Below are positions 8,087 through 50,571 of a DNA stretch of 64,000 bases, piece after piece; position 1 is the stretch's first letter; the number at the start of each line of letters is the position of its first letter. This DNA comes from Escherichia coli (GTDB lineage: Bacteria > Pseudomonadota > Gammaproteobacteria > Enterobacterales > Enterobacteriaceae). The notes beneath the pieces are model-generated. The model saw only the letters and a program-made list of their open reading frames with translations, was not told the DNA's origin and ran no database searches. The position numbers and the translations under genes are program-made. The stretch lies in the NCBI RefSeq assembly GCF_029227855.1, contig NZ_CP074356.1, one strand, 5' to 3'.

Positions 8087-8134
8087 TTTCTTATTCCTCT
8101 TTAAACCTGTCTGAACCGTTATCAACAGCGCAAT

Positions 8135-8167
8135 AAAAAAGCCCCCGGAAGGTGATCTTCCGGGGGC
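8135..8167 (-). terminator. his attenuator terminator hairpin
   Basis: The minus strand reads gcccccggaagatcaccttccgggggc followed by TTTTTT. It lies between hisL and hisG. Confidence 0.85.
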
Positions 8168-8231
8168 TTTCTCATGCGTTCATGCACCACTGGAAGATCT
8201 GAATGTCTTCCAGCACACATCGCCTGAAAGA

Positions 8232-8282
8232 CTAGTCAGGATGATGGTGATGATGGTGGTGTTTAAATTGAACGCGTGTCAT
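8232..8282 (-). CDS. hisL: his operon leader peptide with 7 consecutive His codons
   Basis: Minus strand ATGACACGCGTTCAATTTAAACACCACCATCATCACCATCATCCTGACTAG encodes MTRVQFKHHHHHHHPD. Confidence 0.95.
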   Translation of the reverse strand: MTRVQFKHHHHHHHPD

Positions 8283-36316: not shown

Positions 36317-36424
36317 AGTAAATGCCCCAAAAAAAGAGGACGGTTTAAATAAACTCTGCAATGAATAATTAACGTTATTTACCTGTTATGGGAAAAGTGA
36401 AATCAGCTCATAACATACGCTGAC

Positions 36425-36600
36425 AGGTGTGGCACATTTGTGCCTGGGAAGAGGGTGAAAATCCCTCGCAGCCCCCGCTGCTGTAATGCTGACAAACCCG
36501 AAAATGCCACTGATCGCGAGATTGGGAAGGTCGGGAGAGGATGACGCTAAGCCAGAAGACCAGCCAGTCAGTCAATACCAACAACTTCGGTGGGAAGTGG
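36425..36600 (+). promoter_or_regulatory. Cobalamin (AdoCbl) riboswitch of the former cob/cbi operon leader
   Basis: Conserved core strings GGGAAGAGGGTGAAAATCCCTCGCAGCCCCCGCTGCTGTAA, GCCACTG...GGGAAGG and a B12 box AAGCCAGAAGACCAGCC (36549-36565). Confidence 0.8.
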
Positions 36601-40800: not shown

Positions 40801-40876
40801 TGGCTCCTCTGACTGGACTCGAACCAGTGACATACGGATTAACAGTCCGCCGTTCTACCGACTGAACTACAGAGGA
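40801..40876 (-). tRNA. asnV: tRNA-Asn (anticodon GUU)
   Basis: The reverse complement is TCCTCTGTAGTTCAGTCGGTAGAACGGCGGACTGTTAATCCGTATGTCACTGGTTCGAGTCCAGTCAGAGGAGCCA, 76 nt, with an encoded CCA. Confidence 0.98.
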
Positions 40877-40894
40877 ATCGTGTGAACGGGGCGC

Positions 40895-40923
40895 ATATTA
40901 ATGGCAGTACATGGTGATGTCAA
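40895..40923 (-). promoter_or_regulatory. asnV sigma70 promoter
   Basis: The minus strand has TTGACA, a 17-nt spacer and TAATAT, followed by a GC-rich discriminator (gcgcccc). Confidence 0.7.
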
Positions 40924-40997
40924 AGGGTGAAATGCATTTTTTTGTTTGTTTGCTGTCAATTTCAACAAAGTGGTGAGCTTTCAATCTTATTGGGCAA

Positions 40998-41014
40998 TGA
41001 ACCATCGTGGTGCA
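40998..41014. promoter_or_regulatory. Candidate NtrC binding site upstream of nac
   Basis: TGAACCATCGTGGTGCA matches the consensus TGCACCA-N3-TGGTGCA at 13/14 specified positions, about 120 bp upstream of the sigma54 promoter. Confidence 0.5.
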
Positions 41015-41131
41015 TACCCTCCTTTTATGGGGCAGGGGAACGCGACTGCTGATAAAAAGAACCTATGACGAATCTATCATAATCTCTTATTTGACAGTTG
41101 GTTAGCTTGTACATCAACGCCAAAATAAAAC

Positions 41132-41147
41132 TGGCAAGCATCTTGCA
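41132..41147 (+). promoter_or_regulatory. sigma54 (-24/-12) promoter of nac
   Basis: TGGCAAGCATCTTGCA fits TGGCAC-N5-TTGCA. nac is a known NtrC/sigma54 target. Confidence 0.75.
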
Positions 41148-41202
41148 GTCTGGTTGTAAGTAATGGCGGCACTTGGGCCGATTCTTAAAAACCGGAGGCA
41201 AC

Positions 41203-42120
41203 ATGAACTTCAGACGCCTGAAATACTTCGTAAAAATTGTAGATATTGGTAGCCTGACCCAAGCTGCTGAAGTATTGCATATCGCACAACCAGCGCTCAG
41301 TCAGCAGGTTGCCACACTGGAAGGTGAGTTAAATCAACAACTTTTGATTCGCACAAAACGGGGCGTTACGCCAACTGACGCCGGAAAAATTCTCTATACC
41401 CATGCGCGGGCCATTTTACGTCAGTGTGAGCAGGCCCAACTGGCGGTGCATAACGTTGGTCAGGCATTATCGGGGCAAGTCTCGATTGGCTTTGCGCCAG
41501 GAACCGCTGCGTCATCCATCACCATGCCCTTATTACAGGCGGTTCGCGCTGAATTCCCGGAGGTCGTTATCTATCTTCATGAAAATAGCGGTGCAGTGCT
41601 TAACGAAAAACTGATAAATCACCAACTCGATATGGCGGTGATTTATGAGCATTCCCCTGTGGCTGGTGTATCCAGTCAGGCTTTACTGAAAGAAGATCTT
41701 TTTCTGGTAGGAACCCAAGATTGCCCGGGGCAAAGCGTTGATGTTAATGCTATTGCGCAAATGAACCTCTTTCTCCCAAGTGATTACAGTGCTATTAGAC
41801 TTCGTGTTGATGAGGCTTTTTCCCTACGGCGACTCACGGCAAAAGTCATTGGTGAAATTGAGTCTATTGCCACGCTTACCGCAGCGATTGCCAGCGGCAT
41901 GGGCGTTGCAGTATTACCCGAATCGGCCGCGCGTTCGTTATGTGGCGCAGTAAATGGTTGGATGTCACGCATTACCACTCCTTCCATGAGTCTCTCTTTG
42001 TCATTAAATTTACCCGCCAGAGCGAACTTATCGCCACAGGCACAGGCAGTGAAAGAGTTGTTAATGTCAGTGATGAGTTCTCCAGTGATGGAAAAAAGGC
42101 AGTGGCAATTGGTGAGCTAA
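41203..42120 (+). CDS. nac: Nitrogen assimilation control protein (LysR family)
   Basis: The Met at MNFRRLKYFVKIVDIGSLTQAAEVLHIAQPALSQQV gives 305 aa. Confidence 0.94.
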   Translation: MNFRRLKYFVKIVDIGSLTQAAEVLHIAQPALSQQVATLEGELNQQLLIRTKRGVTPTDAGKILYTHARAILRQCEQAQLAVHNVGQALSGQVSIGFAPGTAASSITMPLLQAVRAEFPEVVIYLHENSGAVLNEKLINHQLDMAVIYEHSPVAGVSSQALLKEDLFLVGTQDCPGQSVDVNAIAQMNLFLPSDYSAIRLRVDEAFSLRRLTAKVIGEIESIATLTAAIASGMGVAVLPESAARSLCGAVNGWMSRITTPSMSLSLSLNLPARANLSPQAQAVKELLMSVMSSPVMEKRQWQLVS

Positions 42121-42221
42121 GCGTTATATCGGGATGGAATAAGATGCGGGTTTTTATTATTTGTTATGCCGGGCATTAGACTTTAACAATAACGGGATAT
42201 CTGAACTGCCCGGAGTTTACC

Positions 42222-43172
42222 GTGAATTTCCAACAACTAAAGATAATCCGCGAGGCTGCACGTCAGGATTACAACCTGACAGAGGTTGCGAATATGCTTT
42301 TTACCTCACAGTCAGGCGTCAGCCGTCACATTCGGGAACTGGAGGATGAACTTGGCATCGAAATATTTGTTCGACGAGGTAAGCGACTGCTGGGCATGAC
42401 TGAACCGGGCAAAGCATTACTGGTCATTGCAGAACGCATTCTTAATGAAGCCAGTAATGTTCGTCGGCTTGCAGACCTGTTTACCAACGATACGTCTGGC
42501 GTTCTCACTATTGCAACGACGCATACTCAGGCACGTTATAGCTTGCCTGAGGTCATTAAAGCTTTTCGCGAACTTTTCCCGGAGGTTCGGCTGGAGCTAA
42601 TCCAGGGTACACCACAGGAAATTGCGACGTTGTTGCAAAATGGCGAAGCTGATATTGGTATCGCCAGCGAGCGTTTGAGTAATGACCCGCAGCTCGTCGC
42701 CTTCCCGTGGTTTCGTTGGCACCATAGTTTGCTTGTTCCACTCGATCATCCCTTGACGCAAATTACACCGTTGACGCTGGAATCAATAGCGAAGTGGCCG
42801 TTAATTACTTACCGACAGGGGATTACGGGGCGCTCACGTATTGATGACGCATTTGTCCGCAAAGGTTTGCTGGCAGATATTGTATTAAGTGCGCAGGATT
42901 CTGATGTCATTAAAACCTATGTTGCTCTTGGGCTGGGGATCGGATTAGTTGCCGAACAATCCAGTGGTGAACAAGAGGAAAAGAATTTAATCCGTCTGGA
43001 TACGAGGCATCTTTTCGATGCTAATACTGTCTGGTTGGGACTGAAGCGAGGGCAACTTCAACGTAACTATGTCTGGCGCTTTCTGGAACTTTGTAATGCA
43101 GGACTGTCAGTTGAGGATATCAAGCGCCAGGTGATGGAGAATAGTGAAGAGGAAATTGATTATCAGATATAG
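42222..43172 (+). CDS. cbl: CysB-like LysR regulator Cbl (sulfonate-sulfur utilisation)
   Basis: 316-aa ORF with a GTG start (NFQQLKIIREAARQDYNLTEVANMLFTSQSGVSRHIRELE...). Confidence 0.93.
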   Translation: MNFQQLKIIREAARQDYNLTEVANMLFTSQSGVSRHIRELEDELGIEIFVRRGKRLLGMTEPGKALLVIAERILNEASNVRRLADLFTNDTSGVLTIATTHTQARYSLPEVIKAFRELFPEVRLELIQGTPQEIATLLQNGEADIGIASERLSNDPQLVAFPWFRWHHSLLVPLDHPLTQITPLTLESIAKWPLITYRQGITGRSRIDDAFVRKGLLADIVLSAQDSDVIKTYVALGLGIGLVAEQSSGEQEEKNLIRLDTRHLFDANTVWLGLKRGQLQRNYVWRFLELCNAGLSVEDIKRQVMENSEEEIDYQI

Positions 43173-43175
43173 CAA

Positions 43176-43200
43176 AAAGCCCGCTATAAAAGCGGGCTTT
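43176..43200. terminator. Bidirectional terminator shared by cbl and asnU
   Basis: aaagcccgct-ataaa-agcgggcttt, perfect 10-bp arms. Confidence 0.65.
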
Positions 43201-43209
43201 TCAGAAATT

Positions 43210-43285
43210 TGGCTCCTCTGACTGGACTCGAACCAGTGACATACGGATTAACAGTCCGCCGTTCTACCGACTGAACTACAGAGGA
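43210..43285 (-). tRNA. asnU: tRNA-Asn (anticodon GUU)
   Basis: 76 nt identical to asnV. Confidence 0.98.
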
Positions 43286-43301
43286 ATCGCTGTTGAGGCA
43301 C

Positions 43302-43329
43302 ATCTTAACGGCGAAAAATCTTTTGTCAA
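43302..43329 (-). promoter_or_regulatory. asnU sigma70 promoter
   Basis: The minus strand has TTGACA, a 16-nt spacer and TAAGAT. Confidence 0.6.
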
Positions 43330-43445
43330 ACCCGATTTTTAAATTTCCCAACTGTTTGCCGTTTCTATCAACAGTTTGTTGCATTTGCAGACAATTTGTT
43401 GGCGAAAATCTTTGCAGCTTTGCTGATTCTCCCTCATTATTTGAA

Positions 43446-44933
43446 ATGTGGTTTCACTTTCTGCAATTAAGGTCGGCTTTGAATATCTCCTCTGCTTTAC
43501 GCCAGGTTGTTCACGGCACTCGCTGGCACGCTAAACGCAAGAGCTACAAAGTGTTGTTCTGGCGCGAGATAACCCCGCTTGCTGTTCCTATCTTCATGGA
43601 GAACGCCTGTGTCCTGTTGATGGGTGTCCTGAGCACTTTTCTGGTCAGCTGGCTGGGAAAAGATGCGATGGCCGGCGTGGGATTGGCGGACAGCTTCAAT
43701 ATGGTCATTATGGCATTTTTTGCGGCTATCGATCTTGGTACCACTGTCGTTGTGGCATTTAGTCTCGGTAAGCGGGATCGACGACGAGCGAGGGTGGCGA
43801 CGCGGCAGTCATTGGTGATCATGACGTTGTTTGCCGTGCTGTTGGCAACGCTTATTCATCATTTTGGCGAACAAATTATTGATTTCGTTGCGGGTGATGC
43901 CACGACAGAAGTTAAAGCACTGGCGTTGACTTATCTGGAGCTGACGGTACTTAGTTATCCAGCAGCTGCCATCACTTTGATTGGTAGCGGGGCACTTCGT
44001 GGTGCAGGGAATACGAAAATACCGCTACTGATTAACGGTAGCCTGAATATTCTTAATATTATTATTAGCGGCATATTGATTTACGGCCTTTTCTCCTGGC
44101 CGGGACTGGGATTTGTCGGGGCTGGGTTGGGGTTAACCATTTCTCGTTATATTGGCGCAGTTGCAATTTTGTGGGTGCTGGCGATTGGTTTTAATCCTGC
44201 GCTAAGGATTTCGTTAAAGAGCTATTTTAAACCGCTGAATTTTAGCATTATCTGGGAAGTCATGGGGATTGGTATTCCAGCAAGTGTCGAATCAGTATTA
44301 TTTACCAGTGGTCGGTTATTAACCCAAATGTTCGTTGCCGGGATGGGGACCAGTGTTATTGCCGGAAATTTTATCGCGTTTTCAATTGCGGCTCTTATCA
44401 ACTTACCCGGAAGTGCGCTCGGCTCTGCTTCTACGATCATTACAGGCCGAAGGTTGGGAGTAGGGCAGATAGCGCAAGCAGAGATTCAGTTGCGGCATGT
44501 GTTCTGGCTGTCCACTCTTGGATTAACGGCCATCGCCTGGCTAACGGCTCCCTTTGCCGGGGTTATGGCATCGTTTTACACCCAGGATCCACAGGTTAAA
44601 CATGTCGTTGTGATTCTGATTTGGCTAAATGCTTTATTTATGCCTATTTGGTCTGCCTCATGGGTGCTACCCGCTGGATTTAAGGGTGCTCGCGATGCAC
44701 GTTACGCCATGTGGGTTTCTATGTTGAGCATGTGGGGTTGCCGGGTTGTAGTCGGTTATGTGCTGGGAATCATGCTTGGCTGGGGTGTGGTTGGTGTCTG
44801 GATGGGAATGTTTGCCGACTGGGCTGTGCGGGCCGTGCTGTTTTACTGGCGAATGGTTACTGGACGTTGGCTGTGGAAATATCCTCGATCTGAGCCGCAA
44901 AAGTGTGAAAAAAAGCCAATTGTGTCGGAATAA
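43446..44933 (+). CDS. yeeO: MATE-family efflux transporter YeeO
   Basis: The Met at MWFHFLQLRSALNISS gives 495 aa and 12 TM helices. The 546-aa track ORF would start inside the asnU promoter, so the shorter start is preferred. Confidence 0.88.
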   Translation: MWFHFLQLRSALNISSALRQVVHGTRWHAKRKSYKVLFWREITPLAVPIFMENACVLLMGVLSTFLVSWLGKDAMAGVGLADSFNMVIMAFFAAIDLGTTVVVAFSLGKRDRRRARVATRQSLVIMTLFAVLLATLIHHFGEQIIDFVAGDATTEVKALALTYLELTVLSYPAAAITLIGSGALRGAGNTKIPLLINGSLNILNIIISGILIYGLFSWPGLGFVGAGLGLTISRYIGAVAILWVLAIGFNPALRISLKSYFKPLNFSIIWEVMGIGIPASVESVLFTSGRLLTQMFVAGMGTSVIAGNFIAFSIAALINLPGSALGSASTIITGRRLGVGQIAQAEIQLRHVFWLSTLGLTAIAWLTAPFAGVMASFYTQDPQVKHVVVILIWLNALFMPIWSASWVLPAGFKGARDARYAMWVSMLSMWGCRVVVGYVLGIMLGWGVVGVWMGMFADWAVRAVLFYWRMVTGRWLWKYPRSEPQKCEKKPIVSE

Positions 44934-44986
44934 ACGACAAAGTGCAGATTATTTCAGCAAACGATTTCAAATTTAAAAAACAGGCT

Positions 44987-45015
44987 TTGACATTGTGGAT
45001 GGGCATCGCTAATAT
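44987..45015 (+). promoter_or_regulatory. asnW sigma70 promoter
   Basis: TTGACA (44987-92), a 17-nt spacer and TAATAT (45010-15), then a GC-rich discriminator. Confidence 0.75.
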
Positions 45016-45033
45016 TCGCCTCGTTCTCACGAT

Positions 45034-45109
45034 TCCTCTGTAGTTCAGTCGGTAGAACGGCGGACTGTTAATCCGTATGTCACTGGTTCGAGTCCAGTCA
45101 GAGGAGCCA
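45034..45109 (+). tRNA. asnW: tRNA-Asn (anticodon GUU); integration target of the island
   Basis: 76 nt identical to asnV/asnU. Its 3' 16 nt form part of the island direct repeat. Confidence 0.98.
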
Positions 45110-45113
45110 AATT
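45094..45113 (+). repeat. attL direct repeat (tRNA 3' end)
   Basis: CCAGTCAGAGGAGCCAAATT. Confidence 0.9.
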
Positions 45114-45270
45114 CAAGTTTTCATGCTTATCTGTACGTCTCTATTTGTTTACGATTCAGTAAGTTAGCGTGAAAATCCTTCCCGGTGCGTATCTGGTTTT
45201 CTCTCTGTATCGGGATAATTTGGTGGTCAGATCTGGGGTCAGTTTGGTTCGATTCTGGAGTGACCCCCAA

Positions 45271-46532
45271 ATGTCTTTAAACGATTCTAAAATCCGCAAG
45301 TTAAAACCCTCTTCCCGTCTGGTAAAACTCTCCGACTCTCACGGTCTGTATCTGCTCGTCAATCCGGGCGGTTCACGCATCTGGTATCTCAAATATCGTT
45401 TCAACGGAAAAGAATCCAGAGTCAGTCTTGGCGCATACCCGCTTGTCTCACTGGCAGAAGCCAGGCAACAGCGCGACGGTATCCGTAAGTTACTGGCGCA
45501 GAATATCAACCCGGCGCAGCAGCGCATGGCGGAGAAAGCGGCCTGCTCCCCTGAAAAGTGCTTTAAGGCAGTGGCGCTGGCCTGGCACAAAACCAACAAA
45601 AAATGGTCGGCTGATTATGCCGCCCGTATTCTCGCCAGTATGGAAAACCATATCTTCCCGGCGATTGGTCATCTGCCAGTTGCCACTCTTAAAACGCAGG
45701 ATTTACTGCTTTGTTGCGGGTTATCGAGGATAAAGGCTTTCTGGAAGTCGCGTCCCGAACCCGGCAGCAACTCAGCAACATCATGCGCTATGCCGTTCAG
45801 CAGGGGCTTACCGAAAGCAATCCGGCGCAGCATCTGGATGGCGTTGTCGCCTCACCCGTAAAGAATCACTACCCCGCGTTACTGCTGGAGCGGTTGCCCG
45901 AACTGCTTGGCCGCATCGGTGACTATCAGCAGGGCCGGGAGTTAACACGGCTGGCGGTGGTGCTGACGTTGCACCTGTTTATCCGTTCCAGCGAACTGCG
46001 TTTCGCCCGCTGGAGCGAGATCGATTTCAGGCACAAAATCTGGACCATCCCCGCCACCCGCGAGGCAATCGACAAAGTACGGTTTTCGGGGCGTGGCGCA
46101 AAAATACGTACCCCGCATATCGTGCCGCTCTCCCGCCAGGCGATTGCCATTCTGAAACAGATACAGGAGCTTTCCGGCCATCTGGATCTGGTGTTTCCCG
46201 GTGATCATAACCCGTACAAGCCAATGAGTGAAAACACCACCAACCGGGCGCTACGCCTGATGGGGTATGATACGAAAACTGAAATCTGCGGGCATGGACT
46301 CAGGGCGATGGCCTGTAGCGCCCTGGTGGAGTCGGAGCTGTGGTCACGCGATACGGTGGAGCGGCAAATGAGCCACCAGGAGCGTAACAGCGTGCGGGCA
46401 GCCTATGTGCATAAAGCGGAGCATCTGGAGGCCAGAAAGGCCATGATGCAGTGGTGGTCGGATTATCTGGATGTGTGCCGCGAGGGGTATGTTGCGCCGT
46501 ACATTTATGCCCGGCAGCATAAGGCAGCCTGA
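45271..46532 (+). pseudogene. int: P4-type tyrosine integrase, disrupted by a 1-nt frameshift near 45706-45710
   Basis: The N-terminal part (MSLNDSKIRKLKPS...LKTQDLL) is in frame 1. The continuation (LLRVIEDKGFLEVASR...HGLRAM...RAAYVH) is in frame 3. Joining needs one extra base. The catalytic HxxR and Y are present downstream. Confidence 0.85.
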
Positions 46533-46568
46533 ATCAGAAATAACGGAAATCATTAAAAATGTAAAAGC

Positions 46569-46594
46569 AGATCCTGATTGACCGGGATCTGCTT
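46569..46594 (+). terminator. Hairpin after the integrase gene
   Basis: agcagatcc-tgattgacc-gggatctgct. The T tract is weak. Confidence 0.4.
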
Positions 46595-46737
46595 ATTGTA
46601 TTGAGAAGTATTACCATTTTTCTGTTATTATCAATCGGAAAGTATCTAAAAATATTTGGCCCCAAATAATTTTGGTGAAAACCAATCAATAAACCATTTA
46701 TCAATAGGTAAGTACCGGAAATTATTCCAGTAGAATA

Positions 46738-47092
46738 TTTTCAGGCGATTGCCTATTAATAAATACATTATTGATAGATAAGTGCCTTCTGTGATTTGTC
46801 CGCAAATCACAGAAGATGAAAACCTATCAATACGGGATATTTTCACGGAAATACCAATTAATACTCCAGAATATCTCCTGACCATATACTCTGAAACCTG
46901 TAAGAACTGCATCAGATATTGAGAGACCATATAGATATAAGTCTGAAATTATTTTGTTTCCAATGATTTCAGGCGAAAACCTATCAATGCATCTGTTTTC
47001 AATAGGCAGCCACCTTCCGTGATTAACATGTTAATCACGGAAGGTGAAAAGCTATCAATAATCGATATTTTCACGGAATTACCACTTAATAC
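46738..47092. repeat. Two diverged ~127-bp tandem units (46738-46864, 46967-47092; period ~229 bp), each centred on a 30-32-bp palindrome
   Basis: Both units start with tttcaggcga and end with gatattttcacggaaNtaccaNttaatac. Palindrome A is cttctgtgatttgtccgcaaatcacagaag (46786-46815). Palindrome B is the perfect 32-mer ccttccgtgattaacatgttaatcacggaagg (47013-47044). Confidence 0.85.
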
Positions 47093-47688
47093 ATCCCAAA
47101 AAATGCGCCATAAAATACCGGGCAATCTTTCCTGATACACATTATCACTGCACCAGCTATACAGAGACAAAATAATCTGCACCAGCCCCTGTAAATCGGT
47201 TATTTGTGCCAGTGTCCCGCCGCTCTACCTGTTCAGGGTTGTGCCAGTTTCTGGCCCTTTGGTTTTCGGCCCTTTCCGGTCAGGCGCTGTTACCCTTATT
47301 GCCCCTTAACCTTTATGACCCTTTCCCTTTCTGACGCAACCAGTTTATTTTGAAATGCTCCATGACAGTCTGCACCAGACTGTATTTTCACCACAGGATA
47401 ACGATCACAAAGTGCAAAAAAATAACATGAAGCACCGAAGATTGTTAATCTATATGTAGCAGGTAATGATGTCAAAAACTGTCGCAGCATTTTTTATAAA
47501 ATTATGAGACATTCTGTGGGCATATAATATATGTCACAAGATGCAGGAAAACAAAGAGAGAGTTTTCAGATATAATCCTGCGTTAGAATTAATGTGATGC
47601 CCCGGTGAATTTACATTTTAAAATTTCCCTGTCCCGTAATATCGGTAAAAACGATTGAAACACCAACTATTAATCGGGAACGTCTCGA

Positions 47689-47707
47689 GTGATTACAGGG
47701 TAATCAC
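47689..47707. repeat. Third GTGATTA...TAATCAC palindrome
   Basis: gtgattac-agg-gtaatcac shares half-sites with the palindromes at 46786 and 47013. Confidence 0.7.
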
Positions 47708-47869
47708 TATAATATCCCGGCAAACTATATTGGTTAAGCAGGAGAATCTGATCAGTTGATATTTATTCGTCATGCTGTAACGATATTTTCACAATATAAA
47801 CCCGTTCGCCCCCTGCGCCAGATCCGGTACAGAGGGTACGATAAATCGCTGTCGTTACGCAGTAACGTA

Positions 47870-48487
47870 CTATTTTGCGACAATCATGAATTCAGTCATT
47901 CCTCCCTCCAGCGGTAGCCGTACACCTGTTTCACCCAGCGACCGCGACCGTCGCCATGACCCAGATCCGTCGCCGTCAGCGCCAGTGACTCCTTTTCGCT
48001 GAATCCCTGCGCCAGTATCCAGGACTGTCGTATAACGGGGACGCCCGCCTTTGGTGCCAAATACCACTTTTAACCGGGTTTCACCGCGGGAAATGGCTTT
48101 CAGCCACGTTTTCAGCGACTGTGAACTCTGTACCGCCTCCTGCGAACGCAGCCCCATCAGCCGCGCAATCTCCAGCGCTGCTGCCAGCCCTGCGTCCTGA
48201 GTACGGGCTTTCTCCATCACCTGCCTGCGTCCAGCCTGTCTCAGCACGGCCCGCAACGCTGCCATTTCGTTTTGCAACGTTCGTAAACCAATATCCAGCT
48301 CCAGCCGTTCCTCAATGTAGCATTCGATATGGCGAACCTTGATCTGCTCCACCCGCTGGATCTGGATATTCAGCGCCCGTAAATGTTCACTGAACCGTTT
48401 TGTAATATGGATACGGTCATTCACCGTTGTGAAGCTGCCGCCCGCTTTCTTCGCCAGCGCCTTCATTTCACTGCTTAATTTACTCAT
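47870..48487 (-). pseudogene. Degraded integrase/recombinase-like gene (N-terminal domain retained, internal deletion plus frameshift)
   Basis: The 205-aa ORF starts MSKLSSEMKALAKKAGGSFTTVNDRIHITKRF...IKVRHIECYIEERL, which looks like a recombinase N-terminal domain (recalled). After ...GGRPRYTTVLD the sensible continuation (WILAQGFSEKESLALTATDLGHGDGRGRWVKQVYG) lies in another frame (48021 to 47896). Confidence 0.45.
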
Positions 48488-49403
48488 GAATCCCTCTGCA
48501 ACAAAAACAAACAGTCTCCGGCGTGTGCTTTTTGGCTGCGCCAGAACGATACCTTTACGCCGGAGTGGTAGTTTGTTGAGGTTTAGGGAGTTTCAGGCTG
48601 TACGCAGTACAGACTGCCTGCGAAGCAGGAGTGTCTCCGGGGCTTCTTGCCCCCCTCGGTATCGATCTTTTTCTCCTTTACTCTTAGCTGACAGCGGCCC
48701 CAAAGGGCATGTCAGACGGCGGAAATATGGCGCAGGCCAGAACTGGCGCGGCTTGTGGCGGTGAGTTGTGCGGCGTCACTTTGCTTTTTCGCTGGCGCGA
48801 CCAAAGTGACGCCTCGTCTGGTGCAGGGGGTAAACGTTACGTTTCTGGTGCAGGGTGACGGTCACGCGGCAGCAAAGCCTGACGGCAATGCAGGCCGCAG
48901 CCCGTCAATGTAAGGCGCTGGTTGTCAGCAGAAGATAAAACCCGGCAAAGCCAGAGTGTCAGCCCGTAAAGCCGGGTATCTGGTGCAGTGATGGTGTATA
49001 TGTACGTCAGTCTCAGATGCAGGTATTTTTGCATCCCCGGCGTTTTCAGAGATCAACGCCGGTAAAGGATGCCATGCTGGCGAAGCCAGGCGCTTCTTTC
49101 AGACGTGAAGCGACAAAGGGACTGCCCGGAGGCAGTTTGTTGCAGGCGGGAGACTGCGCCATTATTTCTGGTGCAGGAAGGAAAAACTGTTTCCGGGTTT
49201 AAAAGATTGTTTGCTTACCTGGTGACGGAAAAACTGCCGCGCTTCGCTTGTCTTCTCCCGGCGCGCTGCCAGCAAAAGCAGGCAGCGCGCCGGGAGAGTC
49301 TGGTTTTACTGTAACAATGCGCCTGACGGTTCAGCCATCAGGATCGGCGTTTATGCATGAGTCTTCCGGTACGGTTGCCCCGATCATCGATGTATCTGGA
49401 CGG

Positions 49404-49592
49404 TCAGATAATTTCCGGTGATGTTTCCAGCGCATCCGCAATCAGTTTTTCGCCGCGCGGCCTGGAGCGGGTCAGCGCATTTGCCAGCGTGGAAGACGCC
49501 AGCCCGGCCCTGCGGGAAACCTCAGCCAGCGATGTTCCCTTTTTTCTCAGGCCCGCGATAATATCGGCGGGGTGCCAGTCGGGTTGCATCAT
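49404..49592 (-). CDS. Ner/Nlp(SfsB)-family HTH DNA-binding protein, C-terminally truncated by TGG to TGA
   Basis: 62-aa ORF (MMQPDWHPADIIAGLRKKGTSLAEVSRRAGLASSTLANALTRSRPRGEKLIADALETSPEII*). The frame continues PSRYIDD... after the stop, where family members read W-PSRY. Confidence 0.65.
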   Translation of the reverse strand: MMQPDWHPADIIAGLRKKGTSLAEVSRRAGLASSTLANALTRSRPRGEKLIADALETSPEII

Positions 49593-50050
49593 GCTGGCCT
49601 CCCGTCGATAACCTGTATGCCGTCAGCAGTACATATCCAGCGTGGGGCGTTCAGATTGGCGGCAAAATACCAGACCAGTTCGCACAGCAGCCCGGTCAGC
49701 GTGGTTTCGGTTTCCGGCAGCAGCACGTGGCCGTTCAGTATCTGCGTCAGCGCCAGGCAGTAATCGCAGAGTGATCCTGCATCAGGCTCAAAACCGGGTG
49801 AAACATCGGGAAGATCATTCGTAATAAACCCGTCAATCAGATGTGGTGGGATCGGCTCGTTCAGCGTGGGCCGCAACAGTGCAAGACAGGTATTAAGCCT
49901 GCCACAGAGCGCCGTTTTCAGCGCCGGATCGCAGCACTCGATGAGCGTTGTGGCAACGCGATCGCAGTACTCCGCCAGATCGGTGAAATCGGTAGCGGCA
50001 CTAAAGGGAACAGCAAGTAAATTGCATTCAGAGGTGAGAGTAGTCGCCAT
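49589..50050 (-). CDS. Hypothetical 153-aa Cys-rich acidic protein, translationally coupled to the Ner-like gene
   Basis: The ORF (MATTLTSECNLLAVPFSAATDF...) ends in an ATGA overlap with the downstream Ner-like start. No family was recognised and the SD is weak. Confidence 0.45.
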   Translation of the reverse strand: MATTLTSECNLLAVPFSAATDFTDLAEYCDRVATTLIECCDPALKTALCGRLNTCLALLRPTLNEPIPPHLIDGFITNDLPDVSPGFEPDAGSLCDYCLALTQILNGHVLLPETETTLTGLLCELVWYFAANLNAPRWICTADGIQVIDGRPA

Positions 50051-50571
50051 AAGGCCGTCTACAGTGAGTGATAAATATTCCAGCCACTGGAGAGGCTAAT
50101 CTCACGGGTGGTGGAACCGGACGGGGTTAGCCTTACCAGCCTCACTGACACTGGCGCGTCTTTCGACGCCCCCGCCCGATCCCGCCATTGAGATGAGACC
50201 GTGCGCGACACACAAATATTGTATCGTCAGTGAGGATCTTCAGGAGGCTAATCCCGACGCCTGATTTTGCAGGCGCGGCGCAACAATACAATGTTCGGTA
50301 ATTTTCAGCAAGAGGTTTAGCGGAAGCAGACGCACAGGAAAATACAATCACGCGATAAATATTAAATACAATTATATTTATATAAAATATATATTGAGCA
50401 ATATGCAGACACTTTCCAGTAAATATCCTGTCAGTTAATTCGTCCCGTTGATATCAGTCAAAAAAATAAATGTAAAAAGAGCGTATTTCGTTTCATACAG
50501 TAACGTTATTTATCATTTTGTCCGGTGTCGCCAGCATCAGGCCAGATGAACCATAAAAAAGGATATCAGCG

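Follow-up and report, generated by a model that had tools for sequence, protein, structure and literature searches.

The 64,000-nucleotide stretch of Escherichia coli DNA analyzed here (contig NZ_CP074356.1, hereafter the window) carries, in an island inserted at a tRNA-Asn gene, a degraded recombinase gene that we call int2, surrounded by exact copies of a 9-mer, CTGGTGCAG or its complement CTGCACCAG. The question raised by this locus is what such an array is and why it accompanies this gene. An earlier note, made from the sequence alone, described seven copies in two groups facing each other across the recombinase gene, and proposed iterons, a protein-binding array or the crossover sites of an invertible segment. 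We find that the strand-polarized array is a conserved part of the unit formed by int2 and the RNA element EFASI (RF02957) in the backbone of islands found at tRNA-Asn and tRNA-Asp genes, and that its orientation switches at EFASI, not around the recombinase gene. The array is apparently undescribed, and it extends an EFASI/STAXI-integrase association that is known but uncharacterized, and that the earlier note had overlooked. EFASI and STAXI (RF01728) were found by comparative genomics beside integrase genes, without an assigned function (PMC12370729); this paper quotes the Rfam description of the STAXI/EFASI-integrase neighborhood, in which no function is given, and reports the detection of both RNAs by reverse transcription PCR in vesicles of other strains. 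In agreement with the earlier note, which knew of no element with this motif, no description of the array turned up in the searchable literature, where the 9-mer spellings occur only in primer lists, and a search by Pfam accession yielded nothing on function.

The local excess of the 9-mer is far beyond chance. All seven exact copies of the window are confined to positions 47148-49176; 100 dinucleotide-preserving shuffles gave 0.53 copies on average and 2 at most, so that none of them reached 7. The positions and strands first reported are right: CTGGTGCAG is spelled on the minus strand at 47148, 47177 and 47370, and on the plus strand at 48818, 48845, 48980 and 49168. All four right-hand copies are preceded by a T and three are followed by a G, and a degenerate copy, CTGGTGACG, is present at 49219. 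The 13-nt inverted repeat that joins the two groups (47144-47156 and 48980-48992) is perfect, and matches at 84% when extended to 25 nt. The right-hand copies are spaced by 27, 135 and 188 bp, the 27-bp pair flanking aaacgttacgttt at 48832-48844, and the left-hand group by 29, 193 and 443 bp. Among orthologues, the copy at 48845 matches exactly in 14 of 16 aligned loci and differs by one base in each of the two others, the copy at 48980 becomes CACTGCGCCAG, and the one at 47370 reads TTGCACCAGA or TTACACCAGA and lies right after the int2 stop codon in distant genera. We call class A the copies with the motif antisense to int2 (plus strand of the window) and class S those with the motif on the int2 sense strand (minus strand); their coordinates are given in Table 1.

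The seven copies are real, and they are the exact-match subset of a larger conserved array. The consensus of this array is YTG(C/T)RCCAG, almost never followed by G. With a purine at the center, CTGCRCCAG occurs 14 times in the window, ten of them within 46500-49500, and YTGCRCCAG has 10 to 15 copies per locus in the conserved backbone of the tRNA-Asn/Asp islands. Over 16 loci, we counted 154 copies of YTGCRCCAG in 37.6 kb of module and 31 in 184 kb sampled outside, i.e., 4.1 versus 0.17 copies per kb, a 24-fold enrichment. The motif is kept in eight genera whose recombinases are only 57-75% identical, as befits a conserved cis-element tied to the recombinase unit. The copies are not the trace of a repetitive protein, an origin that the earlier note had considered: the seven are non-coding in intact elements and, while the int2 open reading frame (ORF) does hold further copies, the Int2 protein is not repetitive.

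The orientation of the copies follows a strict rule, which we quantified on 124 copies from 12 loci in eight genera, each locus being oriented by its int2 gene. In the leader upstream of EFASI, all 37 copies are on the sense strand and none is antisense. Of the 87 copies found from the EFASI 3' edge up to the terminator that follows the convergent integrase gene, 82 are antisense: 9 (and no sense copy) at the EFASI edge, 32 (again with no sense copy) in the int2 ORF and 41, alongside 5 sense copies, between the int2 stop and the terminator. These five exceptions all occupy the same place, the far boundary of one conserved block downstream of int2. The rule also holds in loci added later, from Lonsdalea, Enterobacter, Hafnia and a Salmonella lineage at 59% identity, and the ends of the array are the ends of the co-oriented stretch. 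In the window, three further plus-strand copies (at 47813, 48007 and 48536) place the switch between 48536 and 48818, at EFASI. Hence, the two opposed groups do exist, but they do not face each other across the recombinase gene. The two classes vary in the same way (Y at position 1, R at position 5 and C-to-T at position 4) and, in motif orientation, have the same flanks, which are of low information content, with T favored at -3 and G nearly excluded at +9 and +10.

Copies of the motif also occur within a gene. The gene is the remnant of a recombinase, as the earlier note had recognized. An intact int2 encodes 294 aa (L002:6915-7799), in which we could read by eye GLRSQE, FGTKGGRPR, HSLRYAW, LGHGDG and VYGY as candidates for the catalytic R..K..HxxR..H/W..Y set of tyrosine recombinases, and whose match to the XerC profile is weak; the window copy lacks 99 bp and 194 bp, and no longer has the HSLRY region. 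The 194-bp deletion runs exactly between the ORF copies at 571 and 765 and leaves the hybrid copy at 48007, whereas the 99-bp one lies between unrelated 13-bp direct repeats, GCAGGTG(G/A)TGGAG. The ancestral ORF copies are at 183, 571 and 765, in two reading frames; the lineage of E. coli N17 has instead four copies at 30-186, and the aspV lineage five. Across eight intact genes, the ORFs hold 21 copies versus 7.5 ± 2.1 upon shuffling of synonymous codons, and none of 2000 shuffles reached 21, although this null is itself high (0.9 copies per gene) and the genes are related by descent. An excess of ORF copies whose positions turn over on a constant strand points to selection at the level of the nucleotide sequence. 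int2 is also the sole gene present at every array-bearing locus, since two of these (L015 and L144) lack the neighboring ner-like and orf153 genes in cis.

Upstream of int2, the leader looks like a structured RNA on the int2 strand. It spans about 700 bp in the window and about 900 bp in the comparison across genera, over which it is conserved; it is non-coding, because its conserved blocks differ by 1-nt indels. It contains EFASI at nearly twice the gathering score. STAXI has no match in the window at E <= 5; at the homologous position it scores 41.3 bits in L004, versus a gathering score of 40.5, and 79-102 bits in related plasmid units, to whose STAXI-bearing leaders that of the window is homologous along its length. 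The leader hairpins covary. The basal stem of one of them (GGCGTCACTT/AAGTGACGCC) is invariant even in the plasmid homologues, and its distal stem varies. The best-conserved leader copy of the motif lies, in the consensus fold, between two hairpins and engages in no pairing except for its own 3-bp hairpin. Copy number in the leader varies: Escherichia lineages have one to three 27-bp units with one copy each, and a stretch of about 91 bp between two leader copies is absent from L008. In Escherichia-type lineages, one copy overlaps with the spacer of a putative leader promoter. In several lineages (L003:8592-8894, L005, L015:7297-7569 and L142:9349-10009), toxin-antitoxin genes (HigA, RelE/ParE with a helix-turn-helix (HTH) protein) are inserted where the leader ends on its outer side, beside the ner-like gene or instead of it; the site resembles a hot spot of insertion.

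A 9-bp stem (48557-48565 with 48516-48524) follows the unpaired 3' part of EFASI, ahead of the ribosome-binding region of int2. It is paired at 98.6% in 16 sequences, with compensatory changes in four of its nine pairs; none of 500 column shuffles reached this level, and slid controls were paired at 50% at most. Its loop holds the -60 copy of the motif and the 3' strand of the EFASI stem P1. The two stems thus cross, and are either mutually exclusive or part of a pseudoknot. The 9-bp stem with its U-rich tract looks like an attenuator in front of int2, and its crossing of P1 suggests that EFASI is part of this attenuator, rather than a free-standing small RNA.

The strict polarity of the array excludes most ordinary operator arrangements and leaves strand-dependent models. 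The one we favor, to which we give a probability of roughly 0.35, is that the leader copies are antisense to those of the int2 mRNA and form an RNA lock on int2. If leader to terminator is one transcription unit, as we infer, then the leader RNA carries CUGCRCCAG and the int2 mRNA its complement CUGGYGCAG. The leader copies, in unpaired linkers between conserved hairpins, would pair in cis, or in trans as an abundant terminated leader RNA, with the copies of the attenuator loop, of the ORF and of the 3' untranslated region (UTR). The second recombinase of the island would then be kept silent by premature termination, by a block of translation or by cleavage of the duplex. The EFASI score, the homology to STAXI leaders and the covarying hairpins are consistent with an RNA acting on the int2 strand. 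Moreover, the sub-lineage that lacks the -60 copy has ORF copies from +9/+30 to +186, and an antisense system of the C4/isrK type is encoded in the same module.

Several observations weigh against the RNA lock. The promoter, the terminator and the read-through are all inferred, and scans for sigma-70 and terminator consensus sequences were uninformative. A central A.C mismatch is common among leader/body pairs; in the window itself, the four leader copies have A at the center and the three nearest body copies have C. Matches of at least 12 nt occur in 9.2% of the leader/body pairs versus 4.6% within classes, a difference that is not significant by a rough estimate, and such extended complementarity does not separate an RNA from a DNA model. 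The same is true of the flank preferences, because extended motifs that are identical but on opposite strands complement each other as well. The commonest variant of orthologous body sites (sense G to A, CTGTGCCAG in motif orientation) would break the pairing, and is also seen at leader sites. In Enterobacter, both leader copies have changed T2 to C with no compensating change in the locus: in E. ludwigii (L147 and L148), the copies at -484 and -364 from the int2 start read CCGCRCCAG and the body copies all read CTGCGCCAG. This leader-only change is explained by no model we considered. Finally, one sub-lineage is without the -60 copy, the downstream block contains five copies of the sense class, and we know of no precedent for an antisense array of 10-15 copies.

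The best-placed alternative, which we regard as possible and on the unlikely side, is that the copies are oriented duplex-DNA sites for a protein of the module, Int2 in the first place (as half-site-like or accessory sites), or else the Ner-like HTH protein or the P4-type integrase. The facing arms would organize a nucleoprotein complex at the EFASI/hairpin region and so control int2 expression or recombination. Short asymmetric sites clustered beside a recombinase gene are typical of TnpI- and lambda-arm-like systems, and recombinase assemblies depend on the orientation of their sites, so that the perfect partition of the copies would be accounted for. The shared degeneracy and flanks of the two classes are what a single reader of an oriented motif would impose, the avoidance of G at +9 would fit with that of a Dcm site (CCAGG) created over the motif, and the copy over the possible leader promoter spacer suits a bound protein. 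The array also exists without ner or orf153 in cis, which leaves int2 as the one gene always at hand. Yet no inverted pair is spaced closely enough to act as a crossover core, no site-specific rearrangement was seen, and the Int2 homologues of plasmids and of an integrative and conjugative element (ICE), at 47-54% identity, and of Erwinia, at about 61%, do without an array of any 9-mer. A plain repressor would need neither strict polarity nor sites throughout its own ORF and 3' flank, and the Enterobacter change, restricted to the leader, is a misfit for one protein reading both classes.

We consider it improbable that the copies converge on EFASI as polar barriers or as the polar signals of a translocating enzyme, or that they form opposed arrays of initiator boxes as in oriC. 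Two strictly oriented groups do meet at one point beside an Xer-like gene, and copies that fall within an ORF and turn over in position while their number and orientation are kept recall density-type signals. But genes for a translocase, a Rep or a Tus-like protein are missing from the module, its 2-3 kb hold copies at a density far above that of known polar signals, and CTGGYGCAG is identical to neither Chi (GCTGGTGG) nor the FtsK-orienting polar sequences (KOPS, GGGNAGGG): only CTGGTG is common with Chi, and most lineages have C at Y and read CTGGCGCAG.

Just as improbable, in our view, is an array without function, the by-product of local duplication, codon usage and shared ancestry. The tandem 27-bp units do show duplication, CTG-GCG-CAG is a run of favored codons, the codon null given above is itself high, and the loci are phylogenetically related, so that counts are not independent. 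However, copies lie in non-coding DNA on both sides of the gene and in two reading frames within it, the ORF count is 2.8 times the codon null, lineage-specific positions still obey a perfect strand rule, and homologous plasmid units lack any copy.

An invertible or shufflon-like segment that has its own recombinase, and the opposed copies as its crossover sites, has very little chance of being the right reading. This idea drew on the tyrosine recombinase gene between opposed repeats (the best pair being that of 13/25 nt), and could draw on the deletions that end at direct copies: 194 bp in the window int2, about 91 bp in L008, and the varying number of 27-bp units. Yet the deletion of 99 bp at unrelated 13-bp repeats indicates that slippage between short direct repeats explains those that end at the motif. 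All loci fetched across genera are collinear, and of 520 matching E. coli genomes, 380 align on a single strand over 80% or more of 47000-49400. The modeled junction of an inversion of 47157-48979, a 240-nt query searched in 5,426 E. coli genomes, gave half-matches in 392, none of which covers at least 80%. An inversion between leader and ORF copies would destroy int2, and the segment consists of int2, EFASI and the leader alone, with no alternative coding or promoter segments. An iteron origin, also proposed earlier, is rejected in view of irregular spacings, a module without rep gene and copies within an ORF. Arm sites of the P4-type integrase do not fit either, because the att cores at 45093 and 55647 have no 9-mer near them and are accompanied by GGTGGTC(A) instead. 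Chi, the NtrC half-site (TGCACCA), sigma-54 promoters, Type I/III restriction sites, tRNA 3'-end mimicry and the ArcZ seed show partial or chance-level resemblance, and most such candidates fail once the motif center is G.

Table 1. Features of the int2/EFASI module in the window (positions from the first nucleotide of the window; classes A and S as defined in the text)
Feature	Position	Strand	Remark
P4-type (arm-domain) tyrosine integrase gene, frameshifted	45271..46532	+	adjoins tRNA-Asn
Hairpin terminator after P4-type integrase gene	46565..46594	.	T-rich on both sides
9-mer copy CTGCACCAG, class A	47148..47156	+	left arm of 13/25-nt inverted repeat
9-mer copy CTGCACCAG, class A	47177..47185	+	
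Conserved inter-integrase block	47239..47340	.	invariant core GGCGCTGTTACCCTTA, six CCCTT repeats, bracketed by motif copies
9-mer copy CTGCACCAG, class A	47370..47378	+	
Relaxed copy CTGCGCCAG, class A	47813..47821	+	just 3' of int2 stop
int2 remnant, Xer-like tyrosine recombinase	47870..48487	-	Phage_int_SAM_2 and Integrase_1
Relaxed copy CTGCGCCAG, class A	48007..48015	+	within int2 ORF
9-bp covarying stem and U-rich tract, putative attenuator/terminator	48516..48565	-	just upstream of int2 start
Relaxed copy CTGCGCCAG (int2 RNA: CUGGCGCAG)	48536..48544	+	EFASI 3' edge, in loop of covarying stem before int2
EFASI RNA element (RF02957)	48543..48670	-	100.8 bits, gathering score 51.2
Conserved hairpin GGCGTCACTTTG...CAAAGTGACGCC	48772..48813	-	distal part variable
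9-mer copy, class S (CTGCACCAG on int2 sense strand)	48818..48826	-	
9-mer copy, class S	48845..48853	-	unpaired linker separating two conserved hairpins
9-mer copy, class S	48980..48988	-	right arm of 13/25-nt inverted repeat
9-mer copy, class S	49168..49176	-	Escherichia/Salmonella lineages only
Ner/SfsB-like HTH_35 gene	49404..49592	-	
orf153, conserved	49589..50050	-	no family match
C4 antisense RNA (RF01695) and isrK / c4-a1b1-like element	50104..50289	-	upstream of orf153

The unit belongs to the EFASI/STAXI-integrase association, with which the window shares a full-score EFASI directly upstream of a Phage_int_SAM_2/Integrase_1 gene; the 9-mer array lies outside both Rfam models, and the plasmid and ICE units do not have it. 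The array resembles each of several other known systems in single respects, and fails at least one testable defining feature of each. In the P4 CI RNA (seqA, seqB and seqC) and the C4 RNA of P1/P7, short complementary repeats around a processed structured RNA stop downstream expression. Here also, complementary boxes lie on the same strand up- and downstream of a structured RNA (37/37 and 82/87), and a true C4/isrK-type element is 1.5 kb away in the module; in contrast, the phage systems use two or three boxes of unrelated sequence, not 10-15 spread across an ORF and its 3' UTR. The R64 shufflon (Rci, sfx) also has short opposed repeats beside a tyrosine recombinase gene, some in coding sequence, whereas we see no inversion polymorphism, no alternation of orientations and no alternative segments, and the repeats lie in the recombinase gene itself. 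The P and P' arms of lambda and the internal resolution site (IRS) of TnpI in Tn4430 have asymmetric sites of about 10 bp in opposed groups near a recombinase gene; the arms described here extend for about 1 kb each, one of them through an ORF, we found no core, and Int2 has no arm-binding domain. Finally, KOPS-dif, Chi, Ter and the DnaA boxes of oriC are polarized short motifs that switch strand at a defined point, and KOPS-dif works with Xer recombinases, but these operate at the scale of Mb rather than kb, at far lower density and with a translocase or initiator whose gene is missing here.

The island of the window measures 10.5 kb, lies at a tRNA-Asn gene (45034-45109) and is bounded by a 20-bp direct repeat (45093-45112 and 55647-55666). 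Its backbone consists of the P4-type integrase gene followed, read leftwards, by int2, EFASI, the STAXI-like leader, the ner-like gene, orf153 and the C4/isrK RNA, beyond which lies the Rhs cargo. The same backbone recurs gene for gene with other cargo (Rhs, type VI secretion system (T6SS), HEPN/NACHT) in other E. coli lineages, at asn and asp tRNAs, and in E. albertii, E. whittamii, Salmonella, Klebsiella indica, Serratia, Cedecea, Pseudocitrobacter, Enterobacter and Hafnia. Both integrase genes are present in about 500 of 5,426 complete E. coli genomes; strains CT02 and N17 are examples with an intact module. In Lonsdalea (DarTG cargo) and Dickeya (SIR2-STAND cargo), the backbone is rearranged, with the P4-type integrase upstream, and the motif has four copies and one copy, respectively. 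The array is richest where int2 is tail-to-tail with the P4-type integrase gene.

Several homologues lack the motif altogether. In plasmid units of Citrobacter, Klebsiella and Pantoea, which encode an Int2 that is 46-50% identical and are arranged as STAXI, about 450 bp, EFASI, about 110 bp and the recombinase, there are 0 copies. The motif is also missing from an ICE of K. pneumoniae (52% identical Int2) and from an element of Erwinia (about 61%), and no other repeated 9-mer, allowing for up to one mismatch, was found beside the plasmid, ICE, Erwinia and Dickeya homologues (47-62% identical). By this comparison, the array is an addition to an older STAXI-EFASI-recombinase unit. A scan of IMG/VR for a two-copy pattern gave 120 unrelated matches, none of which encodes int2; one same-strand array (L091) is unrelated. 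In the element of Erwinia sp. P6884 (L150:4001-7600), the int2-family recombinase heads the genes alpA, ash and AAA_25, with no P4-type integrase nearby, and may be the primary integrase there. A remnant of the leader of about 500 bp, with four copies and the GGCGTCAC hairpin, lies on the pESI-like plasmid p-F219 of Salmonella Infantis (L017:3900-4400). By eye, it is cut at the EFASI/int2 position by an unannotated fragment, apparently of an insertion sequence-type transposase, and a 130-bp match to it is found in more than 100 Salmonella megaplasmids.

The region between the two integrase genes differs between lineages. In relatives with a short spacer, the array stops at the terminator hairpin; in the shortest, the conserved block makes up most of the spacer of about 200 bp, versus about 1.3 kb in the window. 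The CCCTT repeats of this block are all on one strand; the block could be a rut-like C-rich tract, acting on transcripts that leave the P4-type integrase gene, or a protein site, and its fold on either strand, as computed by RNAalifold, is weak. The window also has, at 46600-47100, an AT-rich insertion without 9-mer copies that is found in Escherichia lineages only; it contains a duplication of about 228 bp (46734-46864 and 46962-47092, 73% identical), long palindromes at about 46785-46818 and 47009-47046, and repeats of TATCAATA. Further on, 34 nt at 47431-47464 match the region of the anticodon arm of the adjacent tRNA-Asn at 71%, and the changes in the stem preserve its pairing; the stretch may be the relic of an earlier att site or of a tandem insertion, again in Escherichia lineages only. 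The GGTGGTC(A) repeats (45222-45228, 55568-55574 and 55580-55586) lie inside both ends of the island beside the att repeats, and are candidate arm-type sites of the P4-type integrase. On the other side of the leader, relatives have a class S copy, TTGCRCCAG, in the 3' end of the ner-like gene. The C4 RNA scores 62 bits; the isrK / c4-a1b1-like element exceeds the gathering score in relatives and narrowly misses it in the window. Together they look like a control module of the P1 immI kind carried by a chromosomal island. As for the rest of the window, the his leader (8133-8256), a cobalamin riboswitch upstream of the cob genes (36408-36582) and three tRNA-Asn genes around nac, cbl and yeeO (40801-45109) identify it as the asn-tRNA region of E. 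coli.

That the array is a new cis code, with a strand switch at EFASI, that gates an Xer-like recombinase as an RNA lock or as a polar nucleoprotein trap is a tentative proposal that may well prove wrong. The islands concerned bring T6SS, Rhs toxins and anti-phage systems (HEPN/NACHT, DarTG, SIR2-STAND) to Escherichia, Salmonella, Klebsiella, Serratia, Hafnia and Lonsdalea, and the array marks this family and its remnants, such as the fragment on the pESI-like megaplasmids of Salmonella Infantis. An oriented array of 9-mers that are easily mutated (for example from CTGCACCAG to CTCCACGAG) offers a direct route to the control of the second recombinase, and to whether the leader acts as RNA or as DNA. 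If either form of the proposal is true, the array would provide the first experimental handle on EFASI and STAXI, and on the role of the second integrase.

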